Positions 2,801-32,966 of a stretch of DNA of 64,000 bases are shown piece by piece. Each line of letters begins with the position of its first letter. Position 1 is the first letter of the stretch. Under the pieces are notes generated by a model. That model was not told where the DNA came from. It worked only from the letters and a program-made list of their open reading frames with translations, and did not search any database. The DNA is taken from positions 30,502 to 94,501 of the forward strand of contig PBPE01000036.1 of the NCBI GenBank assembly GCA_002724585.1. Reading direction: 5' to 3'. The stretch is from Dehalococcoidia bacterium (lineage in GTDB: Bacteria > Chloroflexota > Dehalococcoidia > Lucifugimonadales > UBA3495). A program made the position numbers and the translations under genes.

Positions 2801-2853
2801 CTATAAAATTAATTAGGGCGAGTGTATATCACTCGCCCTAATTAATTTTATAG
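2801..2853. terminator. Bidirectional intrinsic terminator (24-bp perfect stem, 5-nt loop)
   Basis: ctataaaattaattagggcgagtg / tatat / cactcgccctaattaattttatag. The core is GC-rich (gggcgagtg) and the outer arms are A/T-rich, giving a U-tail on either strand. It sits between convergent genes and overlaps the stop of the minus-strand deacetylase gene. Confidence 0.7.
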
Positions 2854-3962
2854 GTAGGAAAACAATTCTTTTTTATATACTCAATACTCGTCTCAGCCGT
2901 ATTATTCACCATATCCCTAATGTCATCAGTTAAGTCGATCTGAATTGTATCCCTCAACAAATTTAGGTTATGTCTTTCTGCGAAAGACTTGGGTATTTTA
3001 TTTGGCAAATCTATCCCGATCATGTTGCCAAATGCTAAAGACCAACATCTTGCCACTGCTAATACGTCGTATCCTCCCCCGCCTAATGCTAGCAATGGTA
3101 CATTAAACCCAATGATGTGTTGTACTATTTTTTCATATCCGTCTGAGGTGATATTCAGGTGGGTTAATGGGTCTGAGTGATAGGTATCTATTCCTAGCTG
3201 AGCTACTATGACATCTGGTTTGAATGCTTGGACGATCGGTATTACGGCTTGTTCAAATGTCCGCGCGTAAACAGCATCATTAGTGTATGGGGATAAGGGC
3301 AAGTTGATCGAATATCCGTCCGCATTGTCTGAGCCTGTTTCGTTGCTGAATCCTGTGCCAGGAAAAAGATATTCCCCTGATTCGTGTATTGAAATAGTTA
3401 AGACGTTGTTATTGGTGTAGAAAGCTTTCTGAACGCCGTCCCCATGATGGGCGTCGACGTCTATGTACGCTACTCTTTTTCCTTGATCAGTTAGATATTT
3501 AATAGCAATAGCGGGATCGTTAAAGATGCAGAAACCAGATGCGTAAGATCTCATTGCGTGATGTAAGCCTCCTGCTATGTTGAAGGCAATATCAACACTT
3601 CCGGAATTTATCAATTCAGCTGCTATCAACGACGCTCCAGTGCTTAGAGTAGCAGCTTCATACATACCCTGATAAACTGGGTTATCTCCACCGACACTGA
3701 ATCCATATTCGTCAGTCATGAATTCCGAGGTTCTTCTACTCAAGCTCTGCACAGCTGCAATGTAATCTTGGCTGTGTATCAGTGATAACTCTTCTTTGGA
3801 GGCATTCCGAGGACATACTAATCTGACTGCAGATTCATTGAACACACCGTAGCTATTTAGTAAGTCGTAAGTATGTTGCAACCGAATTGGTCTCATTGGG
3901 TGGGTGTTACTGAGAACGTGCTGAGATAATATGCCGTTGTATAAGAATGCTGTTTTACGCAT
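2838..3962 (-). CDS. Histone deacetylase / acetoin-utilisation (AcuC/AphA) family deacetylase
   Basis: 374 aa with GGLHHAMRSYASGFCIFND and DVDAHHGDG, the zinc and active-site motifs of the arginase/deacetylase superfamily. Confidence 0.9.
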   Translation of the reverse strand: MRKTAFLYNGILSQHVLSNTHPMRPIRLQHTYDLLNSYGVFNESAVRLVCPRNASKEELSLIHSQDYIAAVQSLSRRTSEFMTDEYGFSVGGDNPVYQGMYEAATLSTGASLIAAELINSGSVDIAFNIAGGLHHAMRSYASGFCIFNDPAIAIKYLTDQGKRVAYIDVDAHHGDGVQKAFYTNNNVLTISIHESGEYLFPGTGFSNETGSDNADGYSINLPLSPYTNDAVYARTFEQAVIPIVQAFKPDVIVAQLGIDTYHSDPLTHLNITSDGYEKIVQHIIGFNVPLLALGGGGYDVLAVARCWSLAFGNMIGIDLPNKIPKSFAERHNLNLLRDTIQIDLTDDIRDMVNNTAETSIEYIKKNCFPTYKIN

Positions 3963-4069
3963 AGCTGCTTTTTATTTTACCTGTAGATTACAATCTAAAT
4001 TTCCGTAATACTCTCTAGAAACTATTTATATTACAAACTTAATGAGTGGTCTATAGCCGAGTTTGGCTA

Positions 4070-4078
4070 TGCTATACT
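4070..4078 (+). promoter_or_regulatory. Candidate extended -10 promoter element for the mobA-aor-fds operon
   Basis: TGcTATACT lies about 40 nt upstream of the mobA TTG start. No good -35 is present. This is a sequence match only. Confidence 0.3.
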
Positions 4079-4116
4079 CAGCCTAGAGTCGAGAAATATT
4101 ATGCTAAGGAGAAAAA

Positions 4117-4725
4117 TTGTCTACAGTATCGGGAATTGTCCTTGCAGGAGGGGAAAGTAGACGTCTGGGTAGGGACAAGGCATTGGAAATCATCGACGGT
4201 CAACATCTTATCGCGAGGGTCATAGACCGAATGCGAAAAGTATGTGATGAAGTATTAGTGGTAGTATCAAATGTTTCGAGATACCCGGCACAGACTATAC
4301 CAACAGATGTAGAAACGGTATTAGATAAATATCCAGGCAAAGGTTCTTTGGGTGGAATCTATTCAGGGCTCATGTCTACAACAATGGAGTATGGACTAGT
4401 AGTAGCATGCGATATGCCATTCTTAAATTTGACTCTATTACAAAAGATAATAAATATGGGTAGCACCTTTGATATATGCGTACCAGTCTTGTCTGGCCGG
4501 CCTGAGCCTACGCATGCATTGTATTCAAAGAAGTGTCTTCCACATATGAGATGTCAGCTAGATATCAATGATCTCAAAATAACGAATTTTTTCTCCAAAG
4601 TCACCGTTAATTATATCGATGAGGCGATTGTAAAAACGATAGACCCTGACTTGCTCAGCTTTTTTAATATTAATTATCAGTCTGATTTAGATCGGGCGCT
4701 AGGTATTGTGAAGGCACAGAATTGA
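4117..4725 (+). CDS. mobA: Molybdenum cofactor guanylyltransferase (MobA family)
   Basis: N-terminal GIVLAGGESRRLGRDKA nucleotide-binding motif and about 200 aa in length. AAGGAG SD sits 5 nt before a TTG start. Confidence 0.85.
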   Translation: MSTVSGIVLAGGESRRLGRDKALEIIDGQHLIARVIDRMRKVCDEVLVVVSNVSRYPAQTIPTDVETVLDKYPGKGSLGGIYSGLMSTTMEYGLVVACDMPFLNLTLLQKIINMGSTFDICVPVLSGRPEPTHALYSKKCLPHMRCQLDINDLKITNFFSKVTVNYIDEAIVKTIDPDLLSFFNINYQSDLDRALGIVKAQN

Positions 4726-5024
4726 ATCTTGAGAAATTACCTATGGTATCAGTAACTGTTGAAGTATATGGGACATTGAGACTTAGAACTAAACGAAAGT
4801 ATATTTATGTGGAAATTCCTGAAGTCAGTGATAGGAAAGATCTTGCATTTGCGTTATCAAAAGTTTGTCCTGATCTTGTTGGTATTGCTATAAATAGCGA
4901 CGCTACTGATTTTAACGATACGTACTCCATCAATTTGAATGGGCTAACATTCTTGGATAATGATAGCTTCCGTGTAATGAGTGGGGATTCGATCATACTC
5001 CTATCCAATCAGGCAGGAGGGTAA
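4722..5024 (+). CDS. MoaD/ThiS-like beta-grasp sulfur-carrier-type protein with C-terminal Gly-Gly
   Basis: About 93-100 aa, ending ...LLSNQAGG-stop (diglycine terminus). It overlaps the mobA stop by 4 nt and ends 2 nt before aor. An alternative ATG start at 4743 (MVSVTVEVYG...) is possible. Confidence 0.6.
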   Translation: MNLEKLPMVSVTVEVYGTLRLRTKRKYIYVEIPEVSDRKDLAFALSKVCPDLVGIAINSDATDFNDTYSINLNGLTFLDNDSFRVMSGDSIILLSNQAGG

Positions 5025-5026
5025 AA

Positions 5027-6853
5027 ATGTACGGCTATCACGGTAAAGTTCTGGTAGTCGATCTATCGAGTGAATCTTCCTGGTGGGATTATATTCCTGA
5101 GGATGTATACCGGAAATATTTGGGAGGTATTGGACTTGGTACGTACCTGCTATACAAATATTGTCCACCTAACGCTAATCCATTATCTGAAAATAACCCA
5201 CTCATATTTGCTACAAGTCCTTTTGTCGGGAGTAGGTTTACAACAACAAGTAAGTTTGCGGTATTGGCGAAGTCACCTTTGACGGGTTTTATCGGAGATT
5301 CTTTGTCATCTAGTCATTTTGCAGATGCTCTGAAAAATGCTTGCGGAGATGCTCTTATCCTATTAAATAGCGCGCAAAACTTTACACTTTTACATGTAGA
5401 CAACGGGAATCCAGTATTTATAGATGCCTCTGATCTAGTTGGGTTAAGTACATTTGACACGGAGAAATCTGTTAAGAGCTTGCTCGGAAATGCTGTCAGA
5501 GTAGCTTCTATTGGTCCAGCAGGTGAGAATCAGGTTTTGTATTCTAGTATAGCCAATGATGGCGGACGCCAGGCAGGAAGGTGTGGCTTGGGGGCCGTCA
5601 TGGGTTGCAAGAATATTAAGGCTTTAGCAATAAATGGTGATATCGAGACTCAGATATATGATCTCGAAGGAGTCGAACGTTACAGGCGAAAGATATCTGC
5701 TAAGAGCCTCGGGGAAGGTACTGATAAATATAGAAATATAGGCACGATGGCAAATGTTTCTTTATTTAATCGCTTCGGTATATTGCCAACAAAGAACTTT
5801 CAAAAAGCCACTTTCGAAAATGCAGATAAGATCAGCGGAGAGGAATTGGTTGAACGGCATTTTGAGAAGAATTCATATTGTTCAAATTGTACTATTGGAT
5901 GTGAAAAACTTCTTGCGACTACTGACAACGGCAAGAAAAGTATCGGGCGTATGGAATATGAGAGTTTATTCGCGTTTGGGCCACTCTGCAATATAGAGGA
6001 ACCTAATACTATAATCCGTGCGGCAAGATTATGTGATGAATTGGGCATGGATACTGTAAGTTGCGGTGCTACGATAGCGTGGGCTATGGAGTGTGACGAA
6101 AATGGCATTTCTATAGGTGATCAGTCTGACGATATGAAGCTTAGCTTTTCTGACTCTCAGGATTTGCTGAAAACGATATCTATGATAGGGCATCGGGAAG
6201 GGATCGGAGATTTACTCGCTTTGGGGAGCAAACGTGCCTCTGAAATAGTTGGCGGAGGATCTGATCACTGGGCGATGCATGTTAAAGGCCTAGAAATACC
6301 AGGCTACGAACCACGATCTCTAAAAACAATGGCACTAGGATTTGCGACAACCCCACGTGGAGCGTGTCATAATCGGTCCTCTGGATACGAAGCAGATTTG
6401 TCGGGAACAGTAGATAGGTTTAGAGCAGATGATAGTAGATCAGAGGTAGCAGTGGCTAGCGAAGATTTTACAGCTGTCTTGGATTCACTAATTTGGTGTA
6501 AATTTCTGCGCAAAGCCTTTGATGACTTTTACGCGGACTCTGCTCAGGCCTACGAATTGATTACAGGATTTGATATCACTCCGGATGAATTAAGATTGTG
6601 TGGGGAGCGAATAAATAATGCAAAAAAGATGTTTAACATTCGTGAAGGTTGGTGCCGTTCTGACGATACGCTTCCACATAGGATATTGAATGAACCTCTT
6701 CCTGATGGAGTAATGCCCGGGGTCTCATTGAGTCGAGAGGAACTCGACGCAATGGTCGAAGATTACTACGTTTCTCGTGGTTGGACTCATGATGGATTAA
6801 TACCGTTTTCAAAGATATGCGAGCTCGGTCTAGATGAATTGTTGGTAAATTGA
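5027..6853 (+). CDS. aor: Aldehyde:ferredoxin oxidoreductase family (tungsto/molybdopterin enzyme)
   Basis: 608 aa. The N-terminus YHGKVLVVDLS is typical of AOR. The [4Fe-4S] ligand pattern is CSNCTIGC (CxxCxxxC) plus a distal PRGACH cysteine. GGAGGG SD. Confidence 0.9.
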   Translation: MYGYHGKVLVVDLSSESSWWDYIPEDVYRKYLGGIGLGTYLLYKYCPPNANPLSENNPLIFATSPFVGSRFTTTSKFAVLAKSPLTGFIGDSLSSSHFADALKNACGDALILLNSAQNFTLLHVDNGNPVFIDASDLVGLSTFDTEKSVKSLLGNAVRVASIGPAGENQVLYSSIANDGGRQAGRCGLGAVMGCKNIKALAINGDIETQIYDLEGVERYRRKISAKSLGEGTDKYRNIGTMANVSLFNRFGILPTKNFQKATFENADKISGEELVERHFEKNSYCSNCTIGCEKLLATTDNGKKSIGRMEYESLFAFGPLCNIEEPNTIIRAARLCDELGMDTVSCGATIAWAMECDENGISIGDQSDDMKLSFSDSQDLLKTISMIGHREGIGDLLALGSKRASEIVGGGSDHWAMHVKGLEIPGYEPRSLKTMALGFATTPRGACHNRSSGYEADLSGTVDRFRADDSRSEVAVASEDFTAVLDSLIWCKFLRKAFDDFYADSAQAYELITGFDITPDELRLCGERINNAKKMFNIREGWCRSDDTLPHRILNEPLPDGVMPGVSLSREELDAMVEDYYVSRGWTHDGLIPFSKICELGLDELLVN

Positions 6854-6869
6854 AGTTTGCTGATCATAT

Positions 6870-7319
6870 ATGGCAGTGGTGATCATATTGGAACGTAAAG
6901 AATTAAGGTCAATTTTAACGTCAAGTTTCCCCCGTGAAAAAACTTATTTATTGCCCGTTCTTCATTATATTCAGGATGAATTTGATTTCATACCTGAGTG
7001 GGCCCTCCAAATAGTTAGTTGGCACTTGAGGGTTCCGGCTAGTGAAGTGTATGGTGCAGCAACGAGTTACTCAGATATAAGGTTTGTCAGTAATGACAAT
7101 CAAACGGTCAGAGTATGTTCAGGGTTGTCATGCTGGTATATGGGAGGAAAGGGTATATACGATCAGTTATGCTCTGACGTTGGTAACGAGGTATGTGTGG
7201 AAGTTACGAACTGTGCATTTACATGTTCTATGGCACCGCTAGTAGAAATAAGCGGACAATGGTTTTCTCGTTCCACAGTACAAAGCGTATTAAACCAGAT
7301 TCTTAGAAGGTCAGACTAA
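6870..7319 (+). CDS. NuoE/FdsG-like [2Fe-2S] thioredoxin-like ferredoxin subunit
   Basis: 149 aa with VCSGLSCWYMGG...NCAFTCSMAPL, the Cx4C...Cx3C cluster pattern of NuoE/HoxE/FdsG. Confidence 0.85.
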   Translation: MAVVIILERKELRSILTSSFPREKTYLLPVLHYIQDEFDFIPEWALQIVSWHLRVPASEVYGAATSYSDIRFVSNDNQTVRVCSGLSCWYMGGKGIYDQLCSDVGNEVCVEVTNCAFTCSMAPLVEISGQWFSRSTVQSVLNQILRRSD

Positions 7320-7320
7320 T

Positions 7321-8928
7321 ATGGTGAACTCGATGGTTTCATCTTATGAACGAATGGTTTTTGATGCTGCTACTAGGGTAGAGGAATATAAAAAGGATAG
7401 AACTAGGATATTAGTTCAGGTTGGTCAATGTAGTGTTTCTGTAGGAGCGTATTCATTAGCGTATGAGTTGCAGCGCAGTTGGAATGAACCAGGTATTGAT
7501 ATCGTAACAACGGGATGTGATGGTGCGTGTTTCGCGGCTCCGCAAGTGATAGTCCACCATACATCTGGAGATGTCTCTTACTTCCAGAATGTTGATCATG
7601 AGAATTTGGAAGTAATCCGGGATTCAGTGCTGAATAACGGACATACCAAGCCTAGTTTTGACCTAGAAAATTTCTTTTCGCCTCAGCATCTCAGCCTGAT
7701 GTCCGGTATCGGAGAAACAGATCCTAATTCTCTGGATGAATATTTGGCTATCGGGGGTTATAACGGTCTACTGAAAGCTTTATGCGTGACACCGACTGAA
7801 GTGATACTAGAAGTATCCCAATCAGGGTTGCTAGGCCGAGGAGGGGCGTATTTTCCTACATCGAGAAAATGGGAGACTGCGCGAAATACGGATTCACTAG
7901 AAAGATTTTTAATAGTAAATGCTGAGGAAGGTGAGCCAGGGCTATTCAAAGATAGGCATATATTGGAAGGTATGCCTCATCGATTGTTAGAGGGAGCGTT
8001 GATAGCTGCGTATGCTAGTGGATGTTCCAAGTGTTACGTTTATGTGAATGCTGAAGCTCATTTGTCAGTACAAAGACTTTCTGAAGCTATTAAATCTGCT
8101 CAGGATGCTGGTCTGATTGGAAACCATATATTAGGGTCTGACTTTAATTGTACTGTGGAATTGAGGACAGGAGCAGGAGGGTATGTTTGTGGGGAAGAAA
8201 CTACACTAATCAATACTATGGAAGGCGTTAGAAGAGAACCGAGACTAAAACCACCGTTTCCGGTTGAGGTAGGACTGTTTCAGAAACCAACTGTAATAAA
8301 TAACGTTGAAACATTAGCAAATGTTCCTGGTATTTTACTCAATGGGGCAGCGAGATTTGCTCAGATAGGCCTTCCAGAAGCCACAGGTACCAAACTATAT
8401 AGCCTTAGTGGTTCCGTATGCCGTCCGGGTCTTATCGAACTGCCTATGGGTGTCTCACTTAGTCAGATTGTAATCGATGTTGGAGGTGGAAGCCTTCCGG
8501 GGCGATCAGCTAAGCTATTGGCAGTTGGAGGGCCTTCCAGTGGAGTGTTGCCTATTTCAGAAATTGATACTCAAATGAAACCTGGATGGTTGCACAAGAG
8601 CGGTGTGGTGATGGGTGGAGGAGGAGTGATTGTGTTGGATGAAGCAGTCCCGGTACAGGACGTGGTTAGATCTCTTGCTCAGTACAATGCTTCAGAGTCT
8701 TGTGGTAAATGTACACCGTGTCGTGAAGGCACGCCTAGGGTGGTTGAAAAGTTATCGGGATTAGCCGACGACGATGATTCTATCCACATAATTCGTGATT
8801 TAGAGCTACTGTCTGATATTTTGGCTGGAGCTTCCTTGTGTGGATTAGGGCAGATGGCAGGAAATATAGTAAAAAGTGGTCTCTATTTCTTTAAAGATGA
8901 ATTAACTGGGCGCAATGAGAATGTGTGA
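7321..8928 (+). CDS. NuoF/FdsB-like NAD(H)-binding FMN/[4Fe-4S] diaphorase subunit
   Basis: 535 aa. Motifs are GRGGAYFPTSRKWE (FMN site), GAGGYVCGEETTLI (NADH site) and ESCGKCTPCREG...SLCGLG (N3-type 4Fe-4S). There is an N-terminal thioredoxin-like extension as in FdsB/HoxF. Confidence 0.9.
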   Translation: MVNSMVSSYERMVFDAATRVEEYKKDRTRILVQVGQCSVSVGAYSLAYELQRSWNEPGIDIVTTGCDGACFAAPQVIVHHTSGDVSYFQNVDHENLEVIRDSVLNNGHTKPSFDLENFFSPQHLSLMSGIGETDPNSLDEYLAIGGYNGLLKALCVTPTEVILEVSQSGLLGRGGAYFPTSRKWETARNTDSLERFLIVNAEEGEPGLFKDRHILEGMPHRLLEGALIAAYASGCSKCYVYVNAEAHLSVQRLSEAIKSAQDAGLIGNHILGSDFNCTVELRTGAGGYVCGEETTLINTMEGVRREPRLKPPFPVEVGLFQKPTVINNVETLANVPGILLNGAARFAQIGLPEATGTKLYSLSGSVCRPGLIELPMGVSLSQIVIDVGGGSLPGRSAKLLAVGGPSSGVLPISEIDTQMKPGWLHKSGVVMGGGGVIVLDEAVPVQDVVRSLAQYNASESCGKCTPCREGTPRVVEKLSGLADDDDSIHIIRDLELLSDILAGASLCGLGQMAGNIVKSGLYFFKDELTGRNENV

Positions 8929-8940
8929 AGATCGTTCGCA

Positions 8941-10086
8941 ATGGAACAGATAAATAATAAAGAGGTTAATATTATCGGAATGATTGGCGTTTCAAGAGAG
9001 GCGTCAATTAATTCTGGAGCCAGTTTAAGCGTTTTTGGCGGAGGTATAAATCCAGGTGGTGAAGTATTGCCTGGAATAGACCCTGACTATATAGCAGAAT
9101 TTGCTGAAACTCATGAGAAGTCCGGTTTTGATATGGTTTTAACAGGATATTCTTCCACTACTCCGGATGGGTTTGAAGTTGCAGGATTCGCCGCATCCAA
9201 AACTGAAAAGTTGGGTTATTTGATCGCTCATAGACCTGGTTTTATTGCACCTACATTGGCCGCCAGAAAAATCGCTACACTTGATCAACTTACGAAGGGT
9301 AGGATAGCCGTACATATTATATCTGGTGGTAGTGATATAGAGCAGAAACAGGATGGTGACTGGTTGGACCATGATTCTCGTTACAGGCGTACTGACGAAT
9401 ATATTTCAGTGCTTAAAGATATCTGGTCGGGAGTAGAACCATTAGACCGTGCAGGGGAATTTTATTCGTACACAGGTGCGATGAGCACGGTTTCTTGCTA
9501 TCAACAACCTCGTGTACCCTTGTTTTTTGGAGGAGCGTCCTCGGTCGCTCTAGAAATCGGGAGTAGACAGGCCGATTTCTATGCTTTTCTTGGCGAACCT
9601 CTAGAGGTTATTAAACAACGGATAATTGATATCAGAAAACGTGCTAGGCAGCACAACAACGATATCAGATTCAGCATATCCTTTCGGCCAATAATAGGAA
9701 ATACTGAATCTGAAGCATGGCAGAAGGCACATGACATATTGAATAAGGTTAAGATCGCAACTCAGGGAAGAATAGCACCAGGTCAATCTGCACGCGCGCA
9801 GTCAATGTTATCACAGAGGTTAGTTGACTTTGCAACGGAAAAAGATATATATGATCAGCGATTATGGATGCCTATCGCTTATGCTAGTGGTGGGTCCGGA
9901 AATACAACCTGTCTGGTAGGTACTGCAAATCAAGTAGTAGATTCGCTATTGGAATACTATAAAGCCGGATGCACCGCTTTTATACTGAGAGGATTCGATC
10001 CTCTTGTTGATGCACTCGAATATGGAAAAGACTTAATTCCTTTGTTACGTGAGCAGGTAGCTGCTGTTAACAAATTGAAATCATAA
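8941..10086 (+). CDS. SsuD/MsuD/SfnG-family FMNH2-dependent (alkane)sulfonate-type monooxygenase (LLM superfamily)
   Basis: 381 aa. It is collinear with E. coli SsuD as I recall that sequence, for example LIAHRPGFIAPTLAARKIATLDQLTKGRIAVHIISGG...DGDWLDHDSRYRRTDEY and QQPRVPLFFGGASS...FYAFLGEP. The subfamily assignment needs a phylogeny. Confidence 0.75.
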   Translation: MEQINNKEVNIIGMIGVSREASINSGASLSVFGGGINPGGEVLPGIDPDYIAEFAETHEKSGFDMVLTGYSSTTPDGFEVAGFAASKTEKLGYLIAHRPGFIAPTLAARKIATLDQLTKGRIAVHIISGGSDIEQKQDGDWLDHDSRYRRTDEYISVLKDIWSGVEPLDRAGEFYSYTGAMSTVSCYQQPRVPLFFGGASSVALEIGSRQADFYAFLGEPLEVIKQRIIDIRKRARQHNNDIRFSISFRPIIGNTESEAWQKAHDILNKVKIATQGRIAPGQSARAQSMLSQRLVDFATEKDIYDQRLWMPIAYASGGSGNTTCLVGTANQVVDSLLEYYKAGCTAFILRGFDPLVDALEYGKDLIPLLREQVAAVNKLKS

Positions 10087-10102
10087 GTAAGTGATTTAAT
10101 AT

Positions 10103-12868
10103 ATGACAATACATTTAATGCTCGATGGTCAGAAAGTTAGTATAAAGGAAGGACAATCAGTACTGGATGTTATCAACGTGTCTGGTACTTTTATCCCTCA
10201 ATTATGTAAAGATCCCGATATGAAACCGATTGGTGCTTGTCGGACATGCATCGTGGAAATAGATGGTATTCGGGGCATGCCAGCATCGTGTTCAACACCT
10301 GCCGTCAACGGTATGGTAGTTTCCACCAACAGCCCTAGTGTCCAACGGATTCGAAAGGGAATATTGGATTTAACTCTTGGTATGGTCGGTGATGGCACAG
10401 AATTAGGTTTGCTTCGACAGGCTTGTGACAAGTATGGCTTGTCTTCTGGCACTTGGGTGGCCAGATATAGGGAAGACACTGATACTAGCAATCCTGTTTT
10501 TGATATCAGTATGGGCGCTTGCATACTGTGCGCCAGATGCGTTAATGCTTGTCAGGATTCACATCAGTTCATTGGTGCCATAGATCATCTGGGGGCTGGG
10601 ACAGAAAGTAGGATTGGGACATTTATGGACAAACCTTTAATAGAGTCTATATGTACGACTTGCGGTCAATGTCTTTCCGTATGTCCAACAGGCGCGATAC
10701 ATCCCAAGTCAAGCTTGCCTAGGCAGAGATCTGGCAAAGAAGCATTACCGGTTTTGAATACCGTAGCTTCAACGTGTCCCTATTGTGGTGTGGGCTGCGG
10801 AATACAAATATCAACTGATGCGGATGAAAATATCGTTGAGGTTTATGATGATCCAGATAATTTGTCTAGCGTAGGGATGTTGTGTGTTAAGGGCAGGTTC
10901 GGTCAGGGATTCGTAACGCACCCCGATAGGTTGAAGGAACCATTAATTCGTCGAGATGGAGTTTTAAAGCAAGCCACATGGGACGACGCTTTAGATTTGA
11001 TCTCTAGTAAGTTGATTAACTACCGAGGTGATTCGTTCGGAACTCTCTGTTCTGCTAAGGCTACTAATGAAGATGGGTATGTGCAACAAAAGTTCACTCG
11101 CCTAGTAATGAAAAGCAATAATATAGATCATTGCACTCGTCTATGCCATTCCCCATCGGTTGAGGCAATGTTGGAGTCTTTAGGCAGTGGAGCGACGAGC
11201 AATTCGTACTCTGATTATGAAGATGCACGCTGTTTGGTAGTAATCGGTTGTGATCCAACTTCTAACCATCCTGTTGCGGCATCGAGGATGCGTAGGGCAA
11301 TAGTCGAACGGGGAGCTAAACTGATTGTCATAAACCCTCGTCGTATAGATATGTGTGATTATGCCGATATTTGGCTTCGGCCTATGCCAGGCACCGACGT
11401 CGCATTACTAAACGGCATCGCTAATGTCATCATAAAAGACGGGTTATTGGATAGTCCTTTTGTGATGGATAGGACTGAAGGTTATGATGATTGGTACAAG
11501 ATTATCGAAGAATATAACCCGAAAAAAGTCGAGGATATTACTGGTATAGCAGAGCAGGATCTGATTGATGCTGCTAGAACGTATGCGAACCCACCTCCGA
11601 CCCGGTCAGGTCCTGGATTAGAAACAGGAGGTTCCTGCCTAATCTGGGGCATGGGCATTACTCAGCACACTAACGGCACCGCAAACGCTCATGGATTACT
11701 CAACCTGGCTTTAGTTTCCGGGCAGATAGGGAAACGTGGGGCTGGCATATCGCCGCTAAGAGGTCAGAATAATGTGCAGGGATGTGGAGATTCAGGTTGT
11801 TTGCCCGATAATTTGCCTGGATATCAGGGTTTGCGCCCTGAATCATTGCGAAAGTTTGAAGATGCTTGGGGGGGGAATCTTCCGAGTACGAAAGGACTCG
11901 TCGTCACTGAAATGGTCGAATCGATTGGAAAATCCGACGGGATTAAGGCCATGTATATTACTGGTGAAAATCCCCTGCTGAGTGAGCCAGATCTCAATCA
12001 TGCAGAAAAAATGTTTGCGCAATTAGATTTTCTTGTCGTTCAAGATATTTTTCTTCACGAAACTGCAGCAATAGCTGATGTGGTATTACCGGCTGTTAGT
12101 TATGCTGAGAAAGATGGGACATTTACCAATAGTGAGAGAAGGGTACAAAGAATTAGAAAGGCGATCAGTCCACTAGGTAAAGGGAGGGCAGATTGGGAAA
12201 TAATTTCTGAATTGGCTGTGAGAGTTAGTGAGAAGTTGGGGCTTGGTTTAGAACACCAGTTCCTTTATGAAAACCCAGAGCAAATATTTGCAGAAATGTC
12301 TGGCCTAACACCGATAATAGCTGGTATAAACTATCAGCGCATTCAGAAATCTGGTATACAATGGCCATGCCCTGACGTTGGTCACCCAGGGACGGAATTT
12401 TTGTATGAAGAGACATTCCCCAGAGGGGATCGTGCTAAATTCGTGGCTTTTGATCAGGGACCTGTTGCTGCTGAGCGTCCCAATAAACGTTTCCCAATCA
12501 TGCTTAATACTGGCAGGATACTTTACCACTGGCATGGAGGGACCATTACTCGTAGGGTAGTTAATTTAATGGCTAGAGCCCCAGAATTGCAGGTAGCAGT
12601 AAGCCCTGCGGATGCTGAGAAGTACGGCCTGTTGCATGGGGAAAAAATTAAAGTAACTTCAAGACGTGGGGTGCTGACCGGGGTAGCCTTGGTTACTGAC
12701 AGAATGCGGGACGGAGAAATCTTTATCCCATTTGTTAAGCTGTCTGAATCGGCAGCTAATTTCTTAACTAATTCTGCTTATGATCCCATGTCTAAGATAC
12801 CTGAGTACAAGGTCTGCGCTGTCAGTATTGAACCCGCATATCAGGGAATATCGGAAACTTCTAGCTAG
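10103..12868 (+). CDS. fdsA: NAD-linked formate dehydrogenase alpha subunit (FdsA/NuoG-like fusion), Cys-type
   Basis: 921 aa. It has an N-terminal NuoG-type 2Fe-2S (CKDPD...CRTC...C) and two ferredoxin CxxCxxCxxxC motifs. It also has a MopB 4Fe-4S (CPYCGVGC...C) and the active-site motif CTRLCHSPSV (Cys-His, TGC at 11144-11146). LRGQNNVQG contains the conserved Arg. Confidence 0.92.
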   Translation: MTIHLMLDGQKVSIKEGQSVLDVINVSGTFIPQLCKDPDMKPIGACRTCIVEIDGIRGMPASCSTPAVNGMVVSTNSPSVQRIRKGILDLTLGMVGDGTELGLLRQACDKYGLSSGTWVARYREDTDTSNPVFDISMGACILCARCVNACQDSHQFIGAIDHLGAGTESRIGTFMDKPLIESICTTCGQCLSVCPTGAIHPKSSLPRQRSGKEALPVLNTVASTCPYCGVGCGIQISTDADENIVEVYDDPDNLSSVGMLCVKGRFGQGFVTHPDRLKEPLIRRDGVLKQATWDDALDLISSKLINYRGDSFGTLCSAKATNEDGYVQQKFTRLVMKSNNIDHCTRLCHSPSVEAMLESLGSGATSNSYSDYEDARCLVVIGCDPTSNHPVAASRMRRAIVERGAKLIVINPRRIDMCDYADIWLRPMPGTDVALLNGIANVIIKDGLLDSPFVMDRTEGYDDWYKIIEEYNPKKVEDITGIAEQDLIDAARTYANPPPTRSGPGLETGGSCLIWGMGITQHTNGTANAHGLLNLALVSGQIGKRGAGISPLRGQNNVQGCGDSGCLPDNLPGYQGLRPESLRKFEDAWGGNLPSTKGLVVTEMVESIGKSDGIKAMYITGENPLLSEPDLNHAEKMFAQLDFLVVQDIFLHETAAIADVVLPAVSYAEKDGTFTNSERRVQRIRKAISPLGKGRADWEIISELAVRVSEKLGLGLEHQFLYENPEQIFAEMSGLTPIIAGINYQRIQKSGIQWPCPDVGHPGTEFLYEETFPRGDRAKFVAFDQGPVAAERPNKRFPIMLNTGRILYHWHGGTITRRVVNLMARAPELQVAVSPADAEKYGLLHGEKIKVTSRRGVLTGVALVTDRMRDGEIFIPFVKLSESAANFLTNSAYDPMSKIPEYKVCAVSIEPAYQGISETSS

Positions 12869-14088
12869 TCCCCTACTGCAGCTGGGGAACTAGTATTGAC
12901 CTTCTGGGGCCACCATGGATCAGGATATTCAGCCCATAGGTTTTTCACGGCAGGCATCACTTCATTGGCGAACAATGTAGTGTTTTTGAGGGTTAGTTCT
13001 TTCGGCATACTGCCTATGTGTAATAAACACATCAAGTGTCCAACTCTGAGCATCTTTGCCGCTTCTACTAATTGTTCACGAACAGTTTCAGGACTGCCAG
13101 CAATTACATGCCCCTGCTCAATAAAATCTTTCCATTCTAGTTCTCCTGCTGCTTTCTGAGCTTCTTCACCTATTTGAGGTCGAATCGATTCTCTGATGGA
13201 ATTCAGCGATCTATAGCCAGGAGCTTCAGCATAAGGAGGGTGTATTCGTAACATTTTGCGGTAGAAGTATTTTACATGCTCTGAATATTCTTGTTCTGCA
13301 GATCGATCAGTCTCTGATACACACACAAGTTGTAAAAAGCCGAGCCTATGAGGATTGTCATCCAGCCCTCTCTCTGATACGCGGTCCCAGAATCCGTTGA
13401 CTACTCTTAATCCTCTGAGATAACCAAAATAACTTAGGTAGCAATAGACGTAGTCCCTATCTAATACCCAGTCCCATGTTTCTAGGCTGCCACTTCCAGG
13501 TATCCAAACTGGTGGATGGGGTTGCTGAAGTGGACGAGGCCATATGTTTACATAACGGAGCTGATTGTATTTACCATTGAATATGAAGGGTTCACGGTTA
13601 CTCCATGCTTTCATGATCAGGTCATGAGCTTCAGAGTGTTTTTCTCGTAACGTAATGGGAGTTTGGCCATATGAAAGTGTAGTGTCCATAGATGTTCCGA
13701 CAGGGAAACCTGCGACTAGACGGCCCTTGCTCATAATATCAAGCATAGCCATCTCTTCGGCCACTCTGACTGGCGGTTGATATAGTGCTAAGCTGTTTCC
13801 TAACACGATCAGGGCGCCGTTTGAAGTAGTTCTGGATAGGACTGAAGCAATCAAGTTTGGCGAAGGCATTAATCCATAAGCGTTATTATGGTGTTCGTTG
13901 ACGCAAACGCCATCGAATCCGACTGTGTCTGCAAATTGGAGCTCTTCCAAGTAGTCATCATAATGATCTTGGCATCTTTCGGGATCAAATAGACTATTGG
14001 GAGCATCTACCCATGCACTGCGATAATTATCCTCAAAATCACTAGGAAGACCTTGGTACGGCATAAGGTGGAAGAAACAGACTTTCAT
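12865..14088 (-). CDS. Luciferase-like flavin-dependent monooxygenase (LLM) paralogue
   Basis: 407 aa. MKVCFFHLMPY..., FDGVCVNEHH and RLVAGFPVG fit the LLM TIM-barrel pattern. GGAGAT SD. Its stop codon overlaps the fdsA stop. Confidence 0.85.
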   Translation of the reverse strand: MKVCFFHLMPYQGLPSDFEDNYRSAWVDAPNSLFDPERCQDHYDDYLEELQFADTVGFDGVCVNEHHNNAYGLMPSPNLIASVLSRTTSNGALIVLGNSLALYQPPVRVAEEMAMLDIMSKGRLVAGFPVGTSMDTTLSYGQTPITLREKHSEAHDLIMKAWSNREPFIFNGKYNQLRYVNIWPRPLQQPHPPVWIPGSGSLETWDWVLDRDYVYCYLSYFGYLRGLRVVNGFWDRVSERGLDDNPHRLGFLQLVCVSETDRSAEQEYSEHVKYFYRKMLRIHPPYAEAPGYRSLNSIRESIRPQIGEEAQKAAGELEWKDFIEQGHVIAGSPETVREQLVEAAKMLRVGHLMCLLHIGSMPKELTLKNTTLFANEVMPAVKNLWAEYPDPWWPQKVNTSSPAAVGD

Positions 14089-14154
14089 ATTATTGTATCT
14101 CCAATTTGCTAGTTGAGAATCATAGCATACTAATCAATGTCTCTGTAGTTTAGT

Positions 14155-15798
14155 CTACTCGAGCACAAACCCTTCGTATCCTTTGGCAGCGCATTCGTCT
14201 CGTATTGCCCTCATTGCTGGCGCGCTGTCTGGACTGGTTAACAATACTCGGGCTTTTCCGGGTATATTCGCTCCTACATACCAAGAATTTGCCTCTGCTC
14301 CTTGTGTACGCAAAATTTTAGCCCCATCTTCATTGACGTGCCTAACCCAAGCATCTTCAGATTCTATGGTTGGGTGGATGCGATTATAATTCTTGTCCTG
14401 TACCCAGCGAATGGTTTTTGATACCCAGTCGATCAGTGCTTCCGCTGCTCTTGGAAAATTGCCTACCGAAGCTGAGTTGACTGTAAATAGATTTGGGAAT
14501 CCCGCGCTAGTCACGCCCATAAACGTGCGAGGGCCGCCTGAAAATTTTTCGCTAAGTATCTCGCCTCCAATACCTTGAATGTTGATTTTATTCAGCGAGC
14601 CTGTAACCGCATCATACCCTGTGGCGAATATTAATACATCCAGTTCGTATTCGGATTCTGATGTGAGAACTCCTTTGGAAGTTATCCGTTCTATCGGAGC
14701 TGTTTTCACATCCACCAACAATACATTCTCTTGGTTGTACACTTCATAGTATCCGCTTTCACATGGAAGTCTTTTCGATCCAAACATGTGGTCTTTTGGA
14801 ACCAGCATTTCCGCGATAATCGGATCATAGACACGCTCTCGGATCTTATTGCGCACAAATTCTGCATAGTCTTCATTTGCGGGACCTGGCAACATGACAT
14901 CATAGAAATTTGCGAGCCATTTAGCAAATCCACCCTGTAGCCACAGCCTTTCGTATTGCTGTCTACGTTCTTCGGCTGAGACATCCATCGCTGATCGCGG
15001 ATCGAATTTGTGCATAAATGACCCTGCGCTTTCGCTGCACATACGGAATATTTCAGGGTAATTAGCTTTTATTTGCTTCTGAGTTTCAGCGTCAATCGTA
15101 CTATTTCTTAAAGGTGCACAGAAGTTAGGGGTCCTCTGAAATACTGTTAAATGACCCACTTCTTTTGCTATTTCGGTGATCAGTTGCACGCCGCTAGCGC
15201 CTGTTCCAATTACCCCCACTCGCTTCCCGGATAGGTTGATTCCTTCCTTAGGCCATCGGCCTGTGTGGCACCAAGTTCCTTGGAAACTATGGATACCTTC
15301 GAAATTTGGTACGTAGCCTGCGGATAATATTCCTACAGCGGTGATCAAGAACTTTCCTTTGGCTTTGTACCCGTCTTCTATTGATATTTCCCATAAATTC
15401 TCGTTTTCGTTAAACTTTGCAGAGGATACTCGGGAACTGAGCCGTATGTGCTTACGGAGGTCGAATTTGTCAGCGACGTAGTTCAAATAGCGTTCATTTT
15501 CTGGTTGAGCAGAATAATGCTCTTTCCAGTCCCACTCTTGGAGAAGCTCTTCTGAGAAAGAATATCCGTAGGTATAACTCTCGGAATCAAACCGACAACC
15601 TGGGTACCTGTTCCAATACCAGGTGCCCCCAACTCCATCACCTTCTTCGAATGATTGGACAGTTAATCCGAGCTCTCGAAGCTTATATATTGCGTATAGC
15701 CCGGTAACGCCAGCACCGATGACTATTACATCATAGTAATTCATGTCGGAACTATAATGAGTAGTCGGCTCAGATGATGTTTGTTGAGATGTGCTCAT
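14155..15798 (-). CDS. Type I Baeyer-Villiger monooxygenase (cyclohexanone-monooxygenase-like, FAD/NADPH)
   Basis: 547 aa with the BVMO fingerprint FQGTWCHTGRWP (FxGxxxHxxxWP). The two Rossmann motifs are VIGAGVTG and VIGTGASG. Confidence 0.9.
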   Translation of the reverse strand: MSTSQQTSSEPTTHYSSDMNYYDVIVIGAGVTGLYAIYKLRELGLTVQSFEEGDGVGGTWYWNRYPGCRFDSESYTYGYSFSEELLQEWDWKEHYSAQPENERYLNYVADKFDLRKHIRLSSRVSSAKFNENENLWEISIEDGYKAKGKFLITAVGILSAGYVPNFEGIHSFQGTWCHTGRWPKEGINLSGKRVGVIGTGASGVQLITEIAKEVGHLTVFQRTPNFCAPLRNSTIDAETQKQIKANYPEIFRMCSESAGSFMHKFDPRSAMDVSAEERRQQYERLWLQGGFAKWLANFYDVMLPGPANEDYAEFVRNKIRERVYDPIIAEMLVPKDHMFGSKRLPCESGYYEVYNQENVLLVDVKTAPIERITSKGVLTSESEYELDVLIFATGYDAVTGSLNKINIQGIGGEILSEKFSGGPRTFMGVTSAGFPNLFTVNSASVGNFPRAAEALIDWVSKTIRWVQDKNYNRIHPTIESEDAWVRHVNEDGAKILRTQGAEANSWYVGANIPGKARVLLTSPDSAPAMRAIRDECAAKGYEGFVLE

Positions 15799-15825
15799 AG
15801 GATTCTCCGAGTATATAACTTTGTC

Positions 15826-16602
15826 TTATCTACCTTTCCAATTAGGCTTCCGTTTTTCTGCAAATGCTAAAGGTCCCTCTTTAGAATCTTCCGTTGTAAG
15901 CAATTGGTCATACATATGATAAGTCAGTGAAGATATATCTTGAATAGACATGTTTAAGCTTTTGTATGCTAGTTCTTTAAAATATTGTACTGCAAGCGGA
16001 GCATTTTCCGCTATTTGCTGGGCCATAGTAATAGCTTCGGGCATAACCTGGTCAGAAGGTACTACTTTATTCAAGAATCCCATGTCGTACGCTCTCTGGG
16101 CTGTGACAGGTTGTGCTGTCATGCATAGCTCTAATACTGCAGATAGCGGAATCATCTTACTTAATATAGTGCCAAACGGTGGTAATAAGCTCCATTTTGT
16201 TTCAGTAATACCGAGTTTTGCTTCTTCGGAGGCTATTCTCAGATCACATAACTGAGCTATGGACCAACCTCCGGCTAGCGCGTAACCGTTAACTGCAGCG
16301 ATTAAAGGTTTCCAAGTTTGGGGCCACATATAAGGGCTGTCTGGATACATGCTGTCTCTAGCTTTCGCCTGCTTCCCTTCAGCATTGTCATTAGCTCTTT
16401 CTTTAAGGTCACGTCCTGCACAAAATGCGCGTCCGGAGCCAGTAATAATCCCAACATATGCAGTCGGATCGGCGTCAAATTCTGTGATTGCGTCCGCTAG
16501 TTCTTTACGAAGCTGGCGGTTAATGGAATTCAGTGAATCAGGTCTGTTAAGAGTCATGATGACTATATTTTCTTGTTTCTCGTATAAGATTGTTTCCGCC
16601 AT
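15826..16602 (-). CDS. Enoyl-CoA hydratase/isomerase (crotonase) family protein
   Basis: 258 aa with IITGSGRAFCAGRDL and NGYALAGG, the oxyanion-hole segments typical of crotonases. Confidence 0.9.
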   Translation of the reverse strand: MAETILYEKQENIVIMTLNRPDSLNSINRQLRKELADAITEFDADPTAYVGIITGSGRAFCAGRDLKERANDNAEGKQAKARDSMYPDSPYMWPQTWKPLIAAVNGYALAGGWSIAQLCDLRIASEEAKLGITETKWSLLPPFGTILSKMIPLSAVLELCMTAQPVTAQRAYDMGFLNKVVPSDQVMPEAITMAQQIAENAPLAVQYFKELAYKSLNMSIQDISSLTYHMYDQLLTTEDSKEGPLAFAEKRKPNWKGR

Positions 16603-16626
16603 ATAATTTATCTCTCCCTTATTGTT

Positions 16627-16977
16627 TTAAGCATAATGACCTAGGTACGTTCCACCTATCACGTGTATGTGCCCGTGATTTTGGCTTTGCAAGCCATCAT
16701 ATCCGAAGTTTGAAAGAATACGGAATCCATTGGGAGCGTACATGGCTCCGAGGTTTACAGCGGTTGTTCCCATGCGCTCCATGATTCCACTGGTCCAAAG
16801 CTCGATTTGGGTTAGGTGTTGTTTGGGCATCACTAAAAGCATTACTGGGACCCATGTCAACTTGTTGACTATGGCTATGATGTCATTGTCTATATATCTT
16901 ATTCGTGCCGGCTCCGCCCCATTTATTATTTCGCAAAAAACACAGTATGGTGGTTTGTTCAATGTTGGCACTTCCAT
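16627..16977 (-). CDS. HIT (histidine triad) family protein
   Basis: 116 aa with the C-terminal histidine triad NHGHIHVIGG. Confidence 0.8.
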   Translation of the reverse strand: MEVPTLNKPPYCVFCEIINGAEPARIRYIDNDIIAIVNKLTWVPVMLLVMPKQHLTQIELWTSGIMERMGTTAVNLGAMYAPNGFRILSNFGYDGLQSQNHGHIHVIGGTYLGHYA

Positions 16978-16992
16978 ATTTTTAAAGATTTA

Positions 16993-17829
16993 TCAAATTA
17001 CTTCTATTGAAGCGAATATTGTTTTTCCGTTAGTCTCATACAGATACCCAGATTTTTCTGTCGTTCCGTGACCGAGAATTAATAACCAGTTCTCTTCTCG
17101 TGCTTTCTTTAGCCAGTATCTTTTTGCATCAAATGTCTGAGTGGGGTATAAGTCGTAACTAGTGATGTACGGTACTGGTATTTGCTGCGGTATCATTAGT
17201 ATGTCGCCAAGGCATGCTATCTTCTCCCCATCTGACTCAAAATACACCATTTGATGTCCATCTGTATGGCCTCCGGTGTGCCTTACCCAAAGTCTTGAGA
17301 TGATTTCAGTATCTCCATTTAATAATTCTAACTGGTTTGTTTGGTTTAAGGGCAAGAAATCTTCCTCTATATAGGCGGTACGAGTGCGTTCATTAGTGCA
17401 GGTTGCTTCTTGCCAATCTCGTTGCTGGACTAAGTAGGTCGCTTTTGGGAATACCGGGACTAGCTTACCGCCTTCATATGTAGTACAGCCACCCACATGA
17501 TCGAAATGTAAATGTGTAAGAATGACATAATCTATGTCGTTCGGGTATAAACCATAATATTCAAGATTCTTTACCAGATTCCCCCCGCGCATATGAAATC
17601 TGGTTTGAGTGATTTTATTATGTTTGTTGCCGATGCCTGTATCTATTAGAATATTTAAATTGTTGGTCTGAATTAATAAGCAATTTAGAGCGATTTCCAC
17701 ACGATTTAGGCGATCGGGCTTATGAGTTTTGCTCCATATGGCTTTTGGCACTATCCCGAATATGCTTCCGCCATCCATTCGTAAGCTTCCGTCACTTATT
17801 ATGTGTATGTCAGATCTTCCTATCTTCAT
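16993..17829 (-). CDS. Metallo-beta-lactamase-fold hydrolase (lactonase/esterase-like)
   Basis: 278 aa with the HxHxDH motif LTHLHFDHVGG plus distal His and Asp ligands. Confidence 0.85.
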   Translation of the reverse strand: MKIGRSDIHIISDGSLRMDGGSIFGIVPKAIWSKTHKPDRLNRVEIALNCLLIQTNNLNILIDTGIGNKHNKITQTRFHMRGGNLVKNLEYYGLYPNDIDYVILTHLHFDHVGGCTTYEGGKLVPVFPKATYLVQQRDWQEATCTNERTRTAYIEEDFLPLNQTNQLELLNGDTEIISRLWVRHTGGHTDGHQMVYFESDGEKIACLGDILMIPQQIPVPYITSYDLYPTQTFDAKRYWLKKAREENWLLILGHGTTEKSGYLYETNGKTIFASIEVI

Positions 17830-17896: not shown

Positions 17897-18415
17897 GTGA
17901 TATTATGTTTTCGTGAGGGATACGTGTATAGACTAGCAATCATGACGGTGAGTAGTTCAGGCTACACAGGAGACCGTATCGATACAGGTAGCCAAGCTAT
18001 ATCAGAAGTATTATCAGAGCCCGATTATGCGGTAGTGGAATATTGTATTGTGGATGACGATAAAGAGATGATATCCGAACAAATGACAATATGGGCTGAT
18101 AGATCCGATATAGATATTCTGGTGAGCACAGGCGGAACTGGTCTTGGCCCCCGTGATGTTACTCCGGAGGCGTGTTTATCCATAATAGATAAAGAAGTTC
18201 CTGGTCTGGCGGAGAGTATGAGGTCTGAAACTCTCAAATTTACTCCTATGTCGATGTTGAGCCGATCTGTAGCGGGAATAAGGGGTAGCACTTTGATCCT
18301 TACTTTGCCAGGAAGTCCGAAAGCAGTTAAACAGACTTTAGAAGTAGTTAAGCCTGTTCTACCTCACGCAATTGAATTACTTAGGTCTGCGAACCTGGAG
18401 AATCATCCGAATTAG
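17897..18415 (+). CDS. mogA: Molybdopterin adenylyltransferase / MoaB-MogA family
   Basis: LVSTGGTGLGPRDVTPEA and LPGSPKA are hallmarks of the MogA/MoaB family. The start is uncertain (GTG at 17897 or GTG at 17924). Confidence 0.85.
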   Translation: MILCFREGYVYRLAIMTVSSSGYTGDRIDTGSQAISEVLSEPDYAVVEYCIVDDDKEMISEQMTIWADRSDIDILVSTGGTGLGPRDVTPEACLSIIDKEVPGLAESMRSETLKFTPMSMLSRSVAGIRGSTLILTLPGSPKAVKQTLEVVKPVLPHAIELLRSANLENHPN

Positions 18416-28371: not shown

Positions 28372-28555
28372 AAATCATCTCCCGTAATTTCACGTTATAT
28401 TTAGAATTGATGTTCTCTCTTGATGGGTTAAGTGAATACTATCTCCTGTTGTGGAAGAGGTCAAAAAGAGCATCAGATGTCCGATTGACCCACTCTTTGG
28501 TATGCAATACACTCCCATTGGATTTAACGGCAAGATGCCATAGAAGGTGAAACTT

Positions 28556-31286: not shown

Positions 31287-31306
31287 GCTAATAAACGGCT
31301 TTTGTA

Positions 31307-32011: not shown

Positions 32012-32017
32012 TGGATT

Positions 32018-32725: not shown

Positions 32726-32756
32726 GGATCTACACATCAGATGAAAGAGACGAGAA

Positions 32757-32939: not shown

Positions 32940-32966
32940 TTCTGAGACTGACTTATAAGTAGTACA

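Follow-up and report, generated by a model that had tools for sequence, protein, structure and literature searches.

The locus treated here is a run of seven genes that places an aldehyde:ferredoxin oxidoreductase (AOR) beside the subunits of an NAD-linked formate dehydrogenase, in a 64-kb stretch of DNA (64,000 nucleotides of contig PBPE01000036.1, from a Dehalococcoidia bacterium; hereafter the window). Its closest described relatives are found among the tungsten oxidoreductases and the formate dehydrogenases. In WorABCSL of A. mobile (PDB 9MQX) the AOR-type subunit WorL and the connector WorS are plugged into a WorABC core resembling NuoG, NuoF and NuoE, and the electrons of the aldehyde are bifurcated to ferredoxin and NAD (PMC12318220). 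The classification of 2026 places this type in Class IV, with the operon orders worSLCBA (type 1) and worCBASL, and the small ThiS-like protein adjoining WorL in tungsten oxidoreductase operons is called WorX (PMC13328260). AOR together with NuoEF is thus known from WorABCSL (PMC12318220, PMC13328260), as well as from BamBCDEFGHI, and the remark in an earlier note on this DNA that no such system had been described is outdated, although its description of AorABC as a polyferredoxin plus a flavin adenine dinucleotide (FAD) subunit was correct. BmWOR of Brevibacillus massiliensis is an aerobic, ferredoxin-linked, monomeric tungsten oxidoreductase (PMC9424855). In FdhFeFe-Bfu of Clostridium autoethanogenum two catalytic modules share a NuoEF-like core (PMC9304861), and the formate dehydrogenase MeFDH1, an alpha-beta enzyme that functions in an aerobe, is tungsten-dependent, free of selenocysteine and active in air (PMC13197769). 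No description of the present arrangement in SAR202 or Chloroflexi was found in the literature.

The comparison with these systems showed that the locus is a variant architecture outside the five-class scheme of 2026, in which a WorL gene lies beside NuoEF-type genes while both WorS and a bifurcating B subunit are missing. The reading favoured here, with moderate confidence, is that of two enzymes in one operon and one pathway, a ferredoxin-linked AOR and a formate:NAD+ dehydrogenase composed of NuoEF and FdsA. The seven genes are the following.

4117..4725, plus strand: MobA, molybdenum cofactor guanylyltransferase (Pfam NTP_transf_3, E 3e-34)
4722..5024, plus strand (alternative start ATG 4743): MoaD/ThiS-like sulfur carrier, WorX equivalent (GG end, profile match)
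5027..6853, plus strand: AOR-family (WorL) pyranopterin aldehyde oxidoreductase with one [4Fe-4S] cluster (AFOR_N, AFOR_C)
6870..7319, plus strand: NuoE/FdsG/BfuC-like [2Fe-2S] subunit (Pfam 2Fe-2S_thioredx)
7321..8928, plus strand: NuoF/FdsB-like subunit binding flavin mononucleotide (FMN) and NAD(H), of the non-bifurcating type (Complex1_51K, SLBB, NADH_4Fe-4S; NCBIfam NuoF)
8941..10086, plus strand: luciferase-like FMNH2 monooxygenase (LLM) of the SsuD/MsuD/SfnG group (Bac_luciferase, E 1e-61)
10103..12868, plus strand: FdsA-type formate dehydrogenase alpha subunit, with a NuoG-like Fe-S N-terminus and a domain for the Mo/W-bis(molybdopterin guanine dinucleotide) (bis-MGD) cofactor (TIGR01591)

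The open reading frame (ORF) list of the window and the family scans bore out what the earlier note had said of this unit, namely seven genes on one strand with these identities, coordinates and junctions, in the order MobA, MoaD-like (WorX), AOR, NuoE, NuoF, SsuD-like, FdsA. Its statement that the cofactor motifs are intact also stood; the alignment of 31 orthologous loci carrying all four proteins (AOR, NuoE, NuoF and FdsA) showed the core motifs to be invariant, with the exception of E312 of AOR.

With WorABCSL, known from A. mobile and Eubacterium limosum, the locus shares an AOR gene beside genes of the C, B and A type, a WorX, the L-C-B-A order of the type 1 operons and an A subunit devoid of A3. 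Unlike it, the locus has no WorS, the polyferredoxin with four [4Fe-4S] clusters: no ORF for a connector of this type lies between WorX, AOR and NuoE in the window, and none was found in about 80 loci, in which AOR is flanked by WorX and by NuoE or a cupin. Its NuoF is without B2, B3 and B4, and its A subunit is a full formate dehydrogenase of 921 residues, whereas that of WorABCSL is an adaptor of 247 residues with a C-terminal docking helix. Moreover, WorABCSL belongs to an anaerobe and the locus to an aerobic-type marine Dehalococcoidia. The layout of FdsA, its Cys-His-Arg residues and the NuoE/NuoF diaphorase with FMN are those of MeFDH1 (7VW6/7E5Z) and of FdsGBA(D) from Rhodobacter capsulatus and Cupriavidus necator (6TGA, 6VW7), but the operon embeds an AOR gene and WorX, and its NuoF possesses an N-terminal thioredoxin-like domain with three invariant cysteines and is nearer to BfuB-type chains.

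The FdsA protein scored 723.9 bits against TIGR01591, for which the cutoff is 666.25, and its nearest solved structure is the alpha subunit of the W-containing MeFDH1 of M. extorquens (7vw6_A, 8.5e-198). It has the sites for one [2Fe-2S] cluster, for two [4Fe-4S] clusters in a ferredoxin-like domain and for the A5 cluster, all with invariant Cys sets, and the active-site pair C348-H349 together with R553 was present in 31/31 orthologues. Residues 3-200 align with WorA (9mqx_A, 5e-17). The motif of the His-ligated N5/A3 cluster is absent from FdsA, as it is from MeFDH1; the HydA1 chain 8a6t_A carries it, and the corresponding segment of the R. capsulatus FdsA, being longer, was left unaligned and so lies outside the comparison. 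Pfam detected neither FdsD nor FdhD/FdsC among the window ORFs of at least 150 residues, the smaller ones (such as an FdsD of about 80 residues) not having been systematically scanned; since MeFDH1 is also without FdsD, the absence of the latter does not exclude the MeFDH1 subtype.

In NuoE, the residues C83, C88, C115 and C119 are invariant in 31/31 orthologues, and the best PDB matches are NfnC (9n5u_C) and WorC (9mqx_C). The FMN motif GRGGAYFP of NuoF and its N3 ligands C461, C464, C467 and C507 are intact and likewise invariant. Among the PDB chains, NuoF is nearer to those of the BfuB type, WorB included (1e-107 to 1e-123), than to the proteobacterial FdsB (1e-80 to 1e-96), and its thioredoxin-like domain contains C37, C66 and C70, a putative three-Cys metal site whose pattern binds Zn in NfnB of T. 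sibiricus (PMC12018979). This domain was weighed as a possible redox entry point. Judged from these sequences, NuoEF and FdsA have all the parts that an NAD-dependent formate dehydrogenase of the MeFDH1/FdsGBA type needs to work by itself. In a low-GC lineage NuoE is fused to NuoF (L085:10129-11757, also in L084 and L086), a fusion similar in composition to the beta chain of Methylorubrum FDH1 (NuoE plus NuoF). Upstream in L085 there is a gene for 639 residues that is MoeA-like by eye only, no family search having been made.

Bifurcating BfuB subunits are separated from their non-bifurcating homologues by the B2 hinge and the B3/B4 clusters (PMC9304861, PMC12018979). NuoF of the window ends at residue 535, about 28 residues past the last N3 cysteine and 6 residues beyond the BfuB alignment, whereas the BfuB chains run on for about 75 residues. 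The C-terminal B3/B4 ferredoxin domain (2x[4Fe-4S]) and the His/Cys of the B2 hinge are absent in all 31 orthologues, and the tail after the last N3 cysteine, at most 31 residues long, contains no cysteine in any of them. A NuoEF module lacking the B3/B4 domain and the B2 site cannot, therefore, bifurcate electrons.

The AOR is covered over its full length by AFOR_N (E 1e-61) and AFOR_C (3e-116), and its nearest solved chains are WorL of A. mobile (9mqx_D, 2.7e-109) and the AOR of P. furiosus (PfAOR; 1aor, 5.7e-107). Its cluster ligands C285, C288, C292 and C491 align with C288, C291, C295 and C494 of PfAOR, while T240, E312, Y427 and H448 align with T243, E313, Y427 and H448, residues listed as conserved in tungsten oxidoreductases (PMC13328260). 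It is thus predicted to oxidise an aldehyde to the acid, the pterin metal and the substrates being putative assignments. All these residues are invariant in the 31 orthologues except E312, which is present in the window, kept in 18/31 and replaced by Gln in the rest. In the wider set, Gln was observed at this position in about 27 of 78 AORs (the clades of 46-59% identity), with EYQS or EFQT in place of EYES; the loci concerned are L034, L054, the L056-L079 group and L084-L088, which still carry NuoEF-FdsA. As Glu313 of PfAOR is listed as nearly invariant among aldehyde-oxidising tungsten oxidoreductases, the Gln-bearing AORs may have an altered chemistry.

Two of the conserved genes concern the cofactor. 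MobA has the MobA models as its best NCBIfam matches, with scores under the equivalog cutoffs. The MoaD-like protein, of 100 residues, has no Pfam match at threshold (ThiS appeared only at E 0.12, in one orthologue), but a profile of 28 orthologues matches the MoaD structures 2M19 (E 1e-6) and 1VJK (1e-4) end to end, and the terminal GG is kept in 72/74 orthologues. On this evidence it is classed as a putative small beta-grasp carrier of the MoaD/ThiS kind, the WorX equivalent. A start at ATG 4743 would give a protein of 93 residues, the orthologues having 92-95. The bis-MGD cofactor made by MobA serves FdsA and not AOR, which is served by WorX; the AOR-only clade of L031 retains WorX without MobA, so that MobA tracks FdsA and WorX tracks AOR.

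Conservation was examined in 80 loci collected by an alignment-based scan of metagenome contigs, in which the identity of AOR ranged from 46% to 100%, and the seven proteins of the window were tabulated against all of them by tblastn; a single-protein scan of genome contigs gave 3 loci. NuoE/NuoF follow AOR in 57/64 loci with at least 1.2 kb of downstream DNA, and NuoF and FdsA are both present in 31/33 loci with at least 6 kb downstream of AOR. MobA lies upstream of AOR in 60/65 loci with enough sequence, as does the MoaD-like gene. Around AOR homologues of 64-69% identity the core is the same and the flanks are different, and identical copies of the window proteins occur in Tara and other marine assemblies. 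In NCBI the proteins of the locus are listed one after another for a 'Dehalococcoidia bacterium' metagenome-assembled genome. Since the arrangement recurs in dozens of independent contigs, it is far beyond chance. The conservation of gene order, predicted by the earlier note, which had named its absence as a refutation, thus holds from 100% down to 46% AOR identity among unrelated flanks. The conserved core consists of mobA, worX, aor, nuoE, nuoF and fdsA, with mogA adjacent (L090) or a few kb downstream (L089 and the window).

A neighbour-joining tree of 78 AORs has the cluster-bearing sequences across the whole clade, with a few AOR-only groups (47-60% identity) nested at several places within it; the AOR-only state is consequently taken as a secondary loss. 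Only 1 alignment column separates these relatives from the cluster-linked AORs. Two such loci (L031:6836-9448 and L038:5635-7103) are high-GC and probably derive from soil or freshwater, and those of the L031 type adjoin a putative three-gene Mod/Tup-like oxyanion ABC transporter, recognised from ORF sizes and order only, without a family search. The junction of aor and nuoE is occupied by a Cupin_2 gene (102-111 residues) throughout the clade of 63-64% identity (L005:11898-12206, L006:11866-12195, L090:11889-12224) and by a different LLM in L043. The combination of AOR and NuoEF without FdsA was never seen among the loci examined. A second NuoEF pair in L001 was considered as a unit of this kind and rejected, since the pair and its FdsA1 form an inserted Bfu-type formate dehydrogenase: the insert, between nuoF and the orthologous fdsA (L001:14457-20569), encodes BfuC, a BfuB of 642 residues, FdhA with the His-cluster motif and an acidic protein of 243 residues. 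This BfuB (NuoF2) has all the clusters of the bifurcation type and is only about 40% identical to the cluster NuoF, and the true FdsA orthologue (78% identical to that of L023) lies downstream of the insert.

The SsuD-like gene is the one member of the unit that does not belong to this core. Only the window, L009 (whose copy is identical) and L004 have it between NuoF and FdsA, and by this distribution it is a lineage-specific insertion; of the seven-gene unit of the earlier note, six genes are therefore conserved and the seventh is confined to the window's own lineage. The protein scored 211 and 206 bits against the SsuD models of NCBIfam (cutoffs 510 and 518) and 149 against SfnG (cutoff 383), its best PDB matches being MsuD (7jv3, 2e-51), SsuD (1m41, 5e-50) and SfnG (8t0u, 1e-32). 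Being below every equivalog cutoff, it can be assigned only to the wider SsuD/MsuD/SfnG group. SsuD, MsuD and SfnG cleave a C-S bond, each yielding an aldehyde together with sulfite or sulfinate. Three LLM paralogues were noted in the 64 kb, at 8941-10086 (plus strand), 12865-14088 (minus strand) and 28547-29698 (plus strand).

The geometry of the seven genes was that described by the earlier note, with a 4-nt overlap followed by gaps of 2, 16, 1, 12 and 16 nt; with the alternative MoaD-like start the overlap with mobA becomes a gap of 17 nt. No plus-strand terminator-like site was detected at any of the junctions. A ribosome-binding site, AAGGAG, precedes the start of mobA, and a good Shine-Dalgarno sequence is also present before aor. 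FdsA is the last gene of the unit, because the next gene (12865-14088) is convergent on the minus strand. The seven genes are therefore inferred to be co-transcribed, which agrees with the earlier note. The features at the upstream side are:

2838-3962, minus strand: histone-deacetylase family gene, the upstream neighbour (Pfam)
3963..4116, no strand: presumed operon promoter region, the divergent intergenic region of 154 nt 5' of mobA

The latter is the sole non-coding gap of more than 20 nt ahead of the seven genes. A sigma-70 scan upstream of mobA gave no enrichment over shuffled sequences, and the promoter was not located.

In the proposed scheme, formate would be oxidised at the Mo/W-bis-MGD site of FdsA (Cys348, His349 and Arg553), with MobA providing the guanine dinucleotide form of the cofactor. 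Electrons would pass from A5 through the two [4Fe-4S] clusters and the [2Fe-2S] cluster of FdsA to N3 of NuoF, and hence to FMN and NAD+, while NuoE would hold a side [2Fe-2S] cluster. The WorL-type AOR, matured with WorX, would oxidise an aldehyde to the acid, and its single [4Fe-4S] cluster would deliver electrons to a soluble ferredoxin encoded elsewhere. BmWOR (Class I), a monomeric WorL with soluble ferredoxin in an aerobe, is the model for such separate enzymes, although it has no adjacent redox subunits and belongs to a different tungsten oxidoreductase clade. AOR and the formate dehydrogenase would be transcribed together because both serve one route: carbon at the level of formaldehyde may be converted to formate by AOR and then to CO2 by the dehydrogenase, which would be the most economical route, or an aldehyde and formate may arise together. 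In SAR202, a methanesulfonate monooxygenase and a formate dehydrogenase, with formaldehyde as intermediate, have been proposed (PMC5864207, cited for these proposals alongside PMC5395668). In the lineage of the window, the inserted SsuD/MsuD-like monooxygenase could feed the aldehyde from a sulfonate.

That AOR can stand alone follows from the AOR-only loci nested at several places of the tree, and no dedicated docking surface is visible on it, since a single column separates the AOR-only sequences from the cluster-linked ones. A two-subunit 2-oxoacid:ferredoxin oxidoreductase (POR/POR_N and TPP_enzyme_C/PFO_beta_C) is encoded at 34402-36995 on the minus strand of the window, so the organism has a ferredoxin pool.

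Several observations weigh against the reading as two separate enzymes. The place of AOR is always after the maturation genes and ahead of nuoE, in the L-C-B-A order of the proven Wor-Bfu complexes, which hints at physical coupling. The distances of AOR and NuoF are correlated with r 0.96, above those of NuoE and NuoF (0.92) and of NuoF and FdsA (0.85), although every one of these coefficients is inflated by shared ancestry. The operon contains no ferredoxin gene, and apart from FdsA and NuoE nothing in the 64-kb window showed a ferredoxin-type Cys motif in the motif scan; this agrees with the Pfam scans of the larger ORFs and with the statement of the earlier note that no ferredoxin gene is present. 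AOR, NuoEF and FdsA behave as one unit in the loci examined. Finally, the SsuD-like gene that suggests a C1 route is confined to one lineage, and the aldehyde substrate itself is putative.

The most serious alternative is possible but doubtful: AOR would dock directly on NuoEF-FdsA, for example on the 2x[4Fe-4S] domain of FdsA, and aldehyde and formate would both reduce NAD+ at one FMN. The X-L-C-B-A order mirrors the type 1 worSLCBA operon of the proven WorABCSL, whose WorL (9mqx_D) is the nearest solved relative of the AOR and whose WorB is among the chains to which NuoF is nearer than to FdsB; the adjacency is kept down to 46% identity, the AOR-NuoF mirror-tree correlation is the highest of all pairs, and no ferredoxin gene is nearby. 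A precedent is found in FdhFeFe-Bfu (HytA-E/FdhA), where two modules, one of them a formate dehydrogenase, are mounted on one NuoEF-like core (PMC9304861), but that enzyme is bifurcating, NADP/ferredoxin-linked and anaerobic, and in it the formate dehydrogenase is paired with a hydrogenase instead of an AOR. AorABC of Aromatoleum aromaticum (Class III; 8C0Z) would be comparable in passing aldehyde electrons to NAD+, if the diaphorase were shared, but it does so with the polyferredoxin AorA and the FAD subunit AorC, neither of which was found in the operon or the window.

Against direct docking, all characterised multi-subunit AORs use a polyferredoxin connector (WorS, AorA or BamC) and there is none here. 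The connector of WorABCSL docks at A4 of the truncated WorA, a position which in FdsA leads to A5 and the pterin domain, and FdsA is without the A3/N5 side cluster that is the entry point in the NiFe- and Nfn-Bfu enzymes. Compared with their stand-alone homologues, none of the proteins AOR, NuoE, NuoF and FdsA is extended by a domain or a tail, the nested AOR-only lineages differ at one conserved column only, and the AOR/NuoE junction tolerates inserts, namely the cupin of the 63-64% clade and the LLM of L043. Sequential action of AOR and the formate dehydrogenase is at least as likely as a shared diaphorase. Were the latter to exist, the assembly would be a bifunctional, non-bifurcating and probably oxygen-tolerant aldehyde plus formate:NAD+ oxidoreductase and a sixth class of the AOR family, an assignment that can be put forward only tentatively.

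It is improbable that the genes are clustered merely by cofactor logistics, that is, by a common and scarce supply of Mo/W-pterin or by a metal-responsive regulator, with no metabolic or physical link between the enzymes. Cofactor genes do frame the cluster, with MobA and WorX upstream and, in L090, MogA/MoaB directly downstream, and an AOR-only clade lies beside the putative Mod/Tup-like transporter. That the order stays stable over deep divergence, and that AOR stands between MobA and the formate dehydrogenase genes, nevertheless goes beyond what a loose regulon would give, and both enzymes act on low-potential carbonyl or C1 substrates that are chemically consecutive.

A bifurcating Wor-Bfu or Fdh-Bfu enzyme, reducing ferredoxin and NAD+ together, is very improbable and was rejected on the architecture of NuoF: BfuC, BfuB and BfuA are indeed the homologues of NuoE, NuoF and the N-terminus of FdsA, and bifurcating enzymes head the PDB matches of NuoF, but NuoF stops after its B1/N3 domain in all the orthologues, and a true BfuB with every feature sits beside the cluster in L001 at the distant identity given above. 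Equally remote, and also rejected, is the idea that NuoEF-FdsA feeds an 11-subunit complex I as its alternative module for NADH or formate input, which is favoured by the NuoG-like character of FdsA, by the presence of such a complex I in the host of BmWOR and by the lack of NuoEFG in many Dehalococcoidia, but opposed by the missing His-ligated N5/A3 cluster, by way of which electrons reach NuoI in complex I, and by the absence of nuo membrane-arm genes from the window and every locus examined.

One further gene of the cofactor theme lies downstream of the favoured two-enzyme operon.

17897..18415, plus strand: MogA/MoaB-type molybdopterin-binding protein (Pfam MoCF_biosynth, E 7e-31)

The earlier note had counted it towards a local Mo/W theme, and this was borne out, as the gene is directly 3' of FdsA in L090, where the genes that come next (NHL, DUF1501, DUF1800) are those of the window; L089 has it about 3 kb downstream of FdsA. 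The window has 5 kb of minus-strand genes (12865-17829) between FdsA and this gene, a block that by comparison with L090 looks like an insertion. It contains genes for a luciferase-like monooxygenase, an FMO/Baeyer-Villiger-type monooxygenase, an enoyl-CoA hydratase, a HIT protein and a metallo-beta-lactamase; it is absent at this place in L090, and L089 has a partial version (ACAD, ECH, HIT). After MogA/MoaB, at 18469-18804 on the plus strand, the window encodes a protein of 111 residues with no Pfam match, which is 61-63% identical to proteins at the same position in L089 and L090, with the motifs YWPRVKEIL and MPLRGPF kept, and which may be part of the cofactor neighbourhood.

As regards the surroundings, cytochrome c maturation genes (CcmA-like ABC ATPase, CcmB, CcmC-like, CcmE) occupy 30630-34336 of the window and are consistent with a respiratory, aerobic lifestyle of the AOR host. 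A Baeyer-Villiger-type monooxygenase, a short-chain dehydrogenase, a Zn-ADH and an FAA hydrolase are also present, and the gene content, with its luciferase-like and Baeyer-Villiger monooxygenases, matches that of SAR202-type Dehalococcoidia. At 2487-2777 on the plus strand, after dnaK, there is an ORF of 96 residues without a Pfam match; L004 has a gene for 94 residues at this place, also without one, and the ORF is probably a real, conserved small gene.

In the dark ocean, few bacteria are as abundant as the SAR202-type Dehalococcoidia, to which the oxidation of recalcitrant organic matter has been ascribed. In the pathways proposed for them, the conversion of aldehydes, including formaldehyde, to the acids is poorly assigned, and the operon is a concrete candidate for this step. 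The locus points to low-potential Mo/W-pterin chemistry in an organism that has cytochrome c maturation genes. If AOR were physically coupled to the other subunits, this would be a new way of wiring AOR to NAD+ and a new class of tungsten oxidoreductase, potentially an air-tolerant catalyst pair interconverting CO2, formate, acids and aldehydes with NADH. It is tempting to speculate that, should the diaphorase be shared, one conserved machine of abundant marine Dehalococcoidia would turn carbon at the level of formaldehyde into CO2 with the gain of two NADH.

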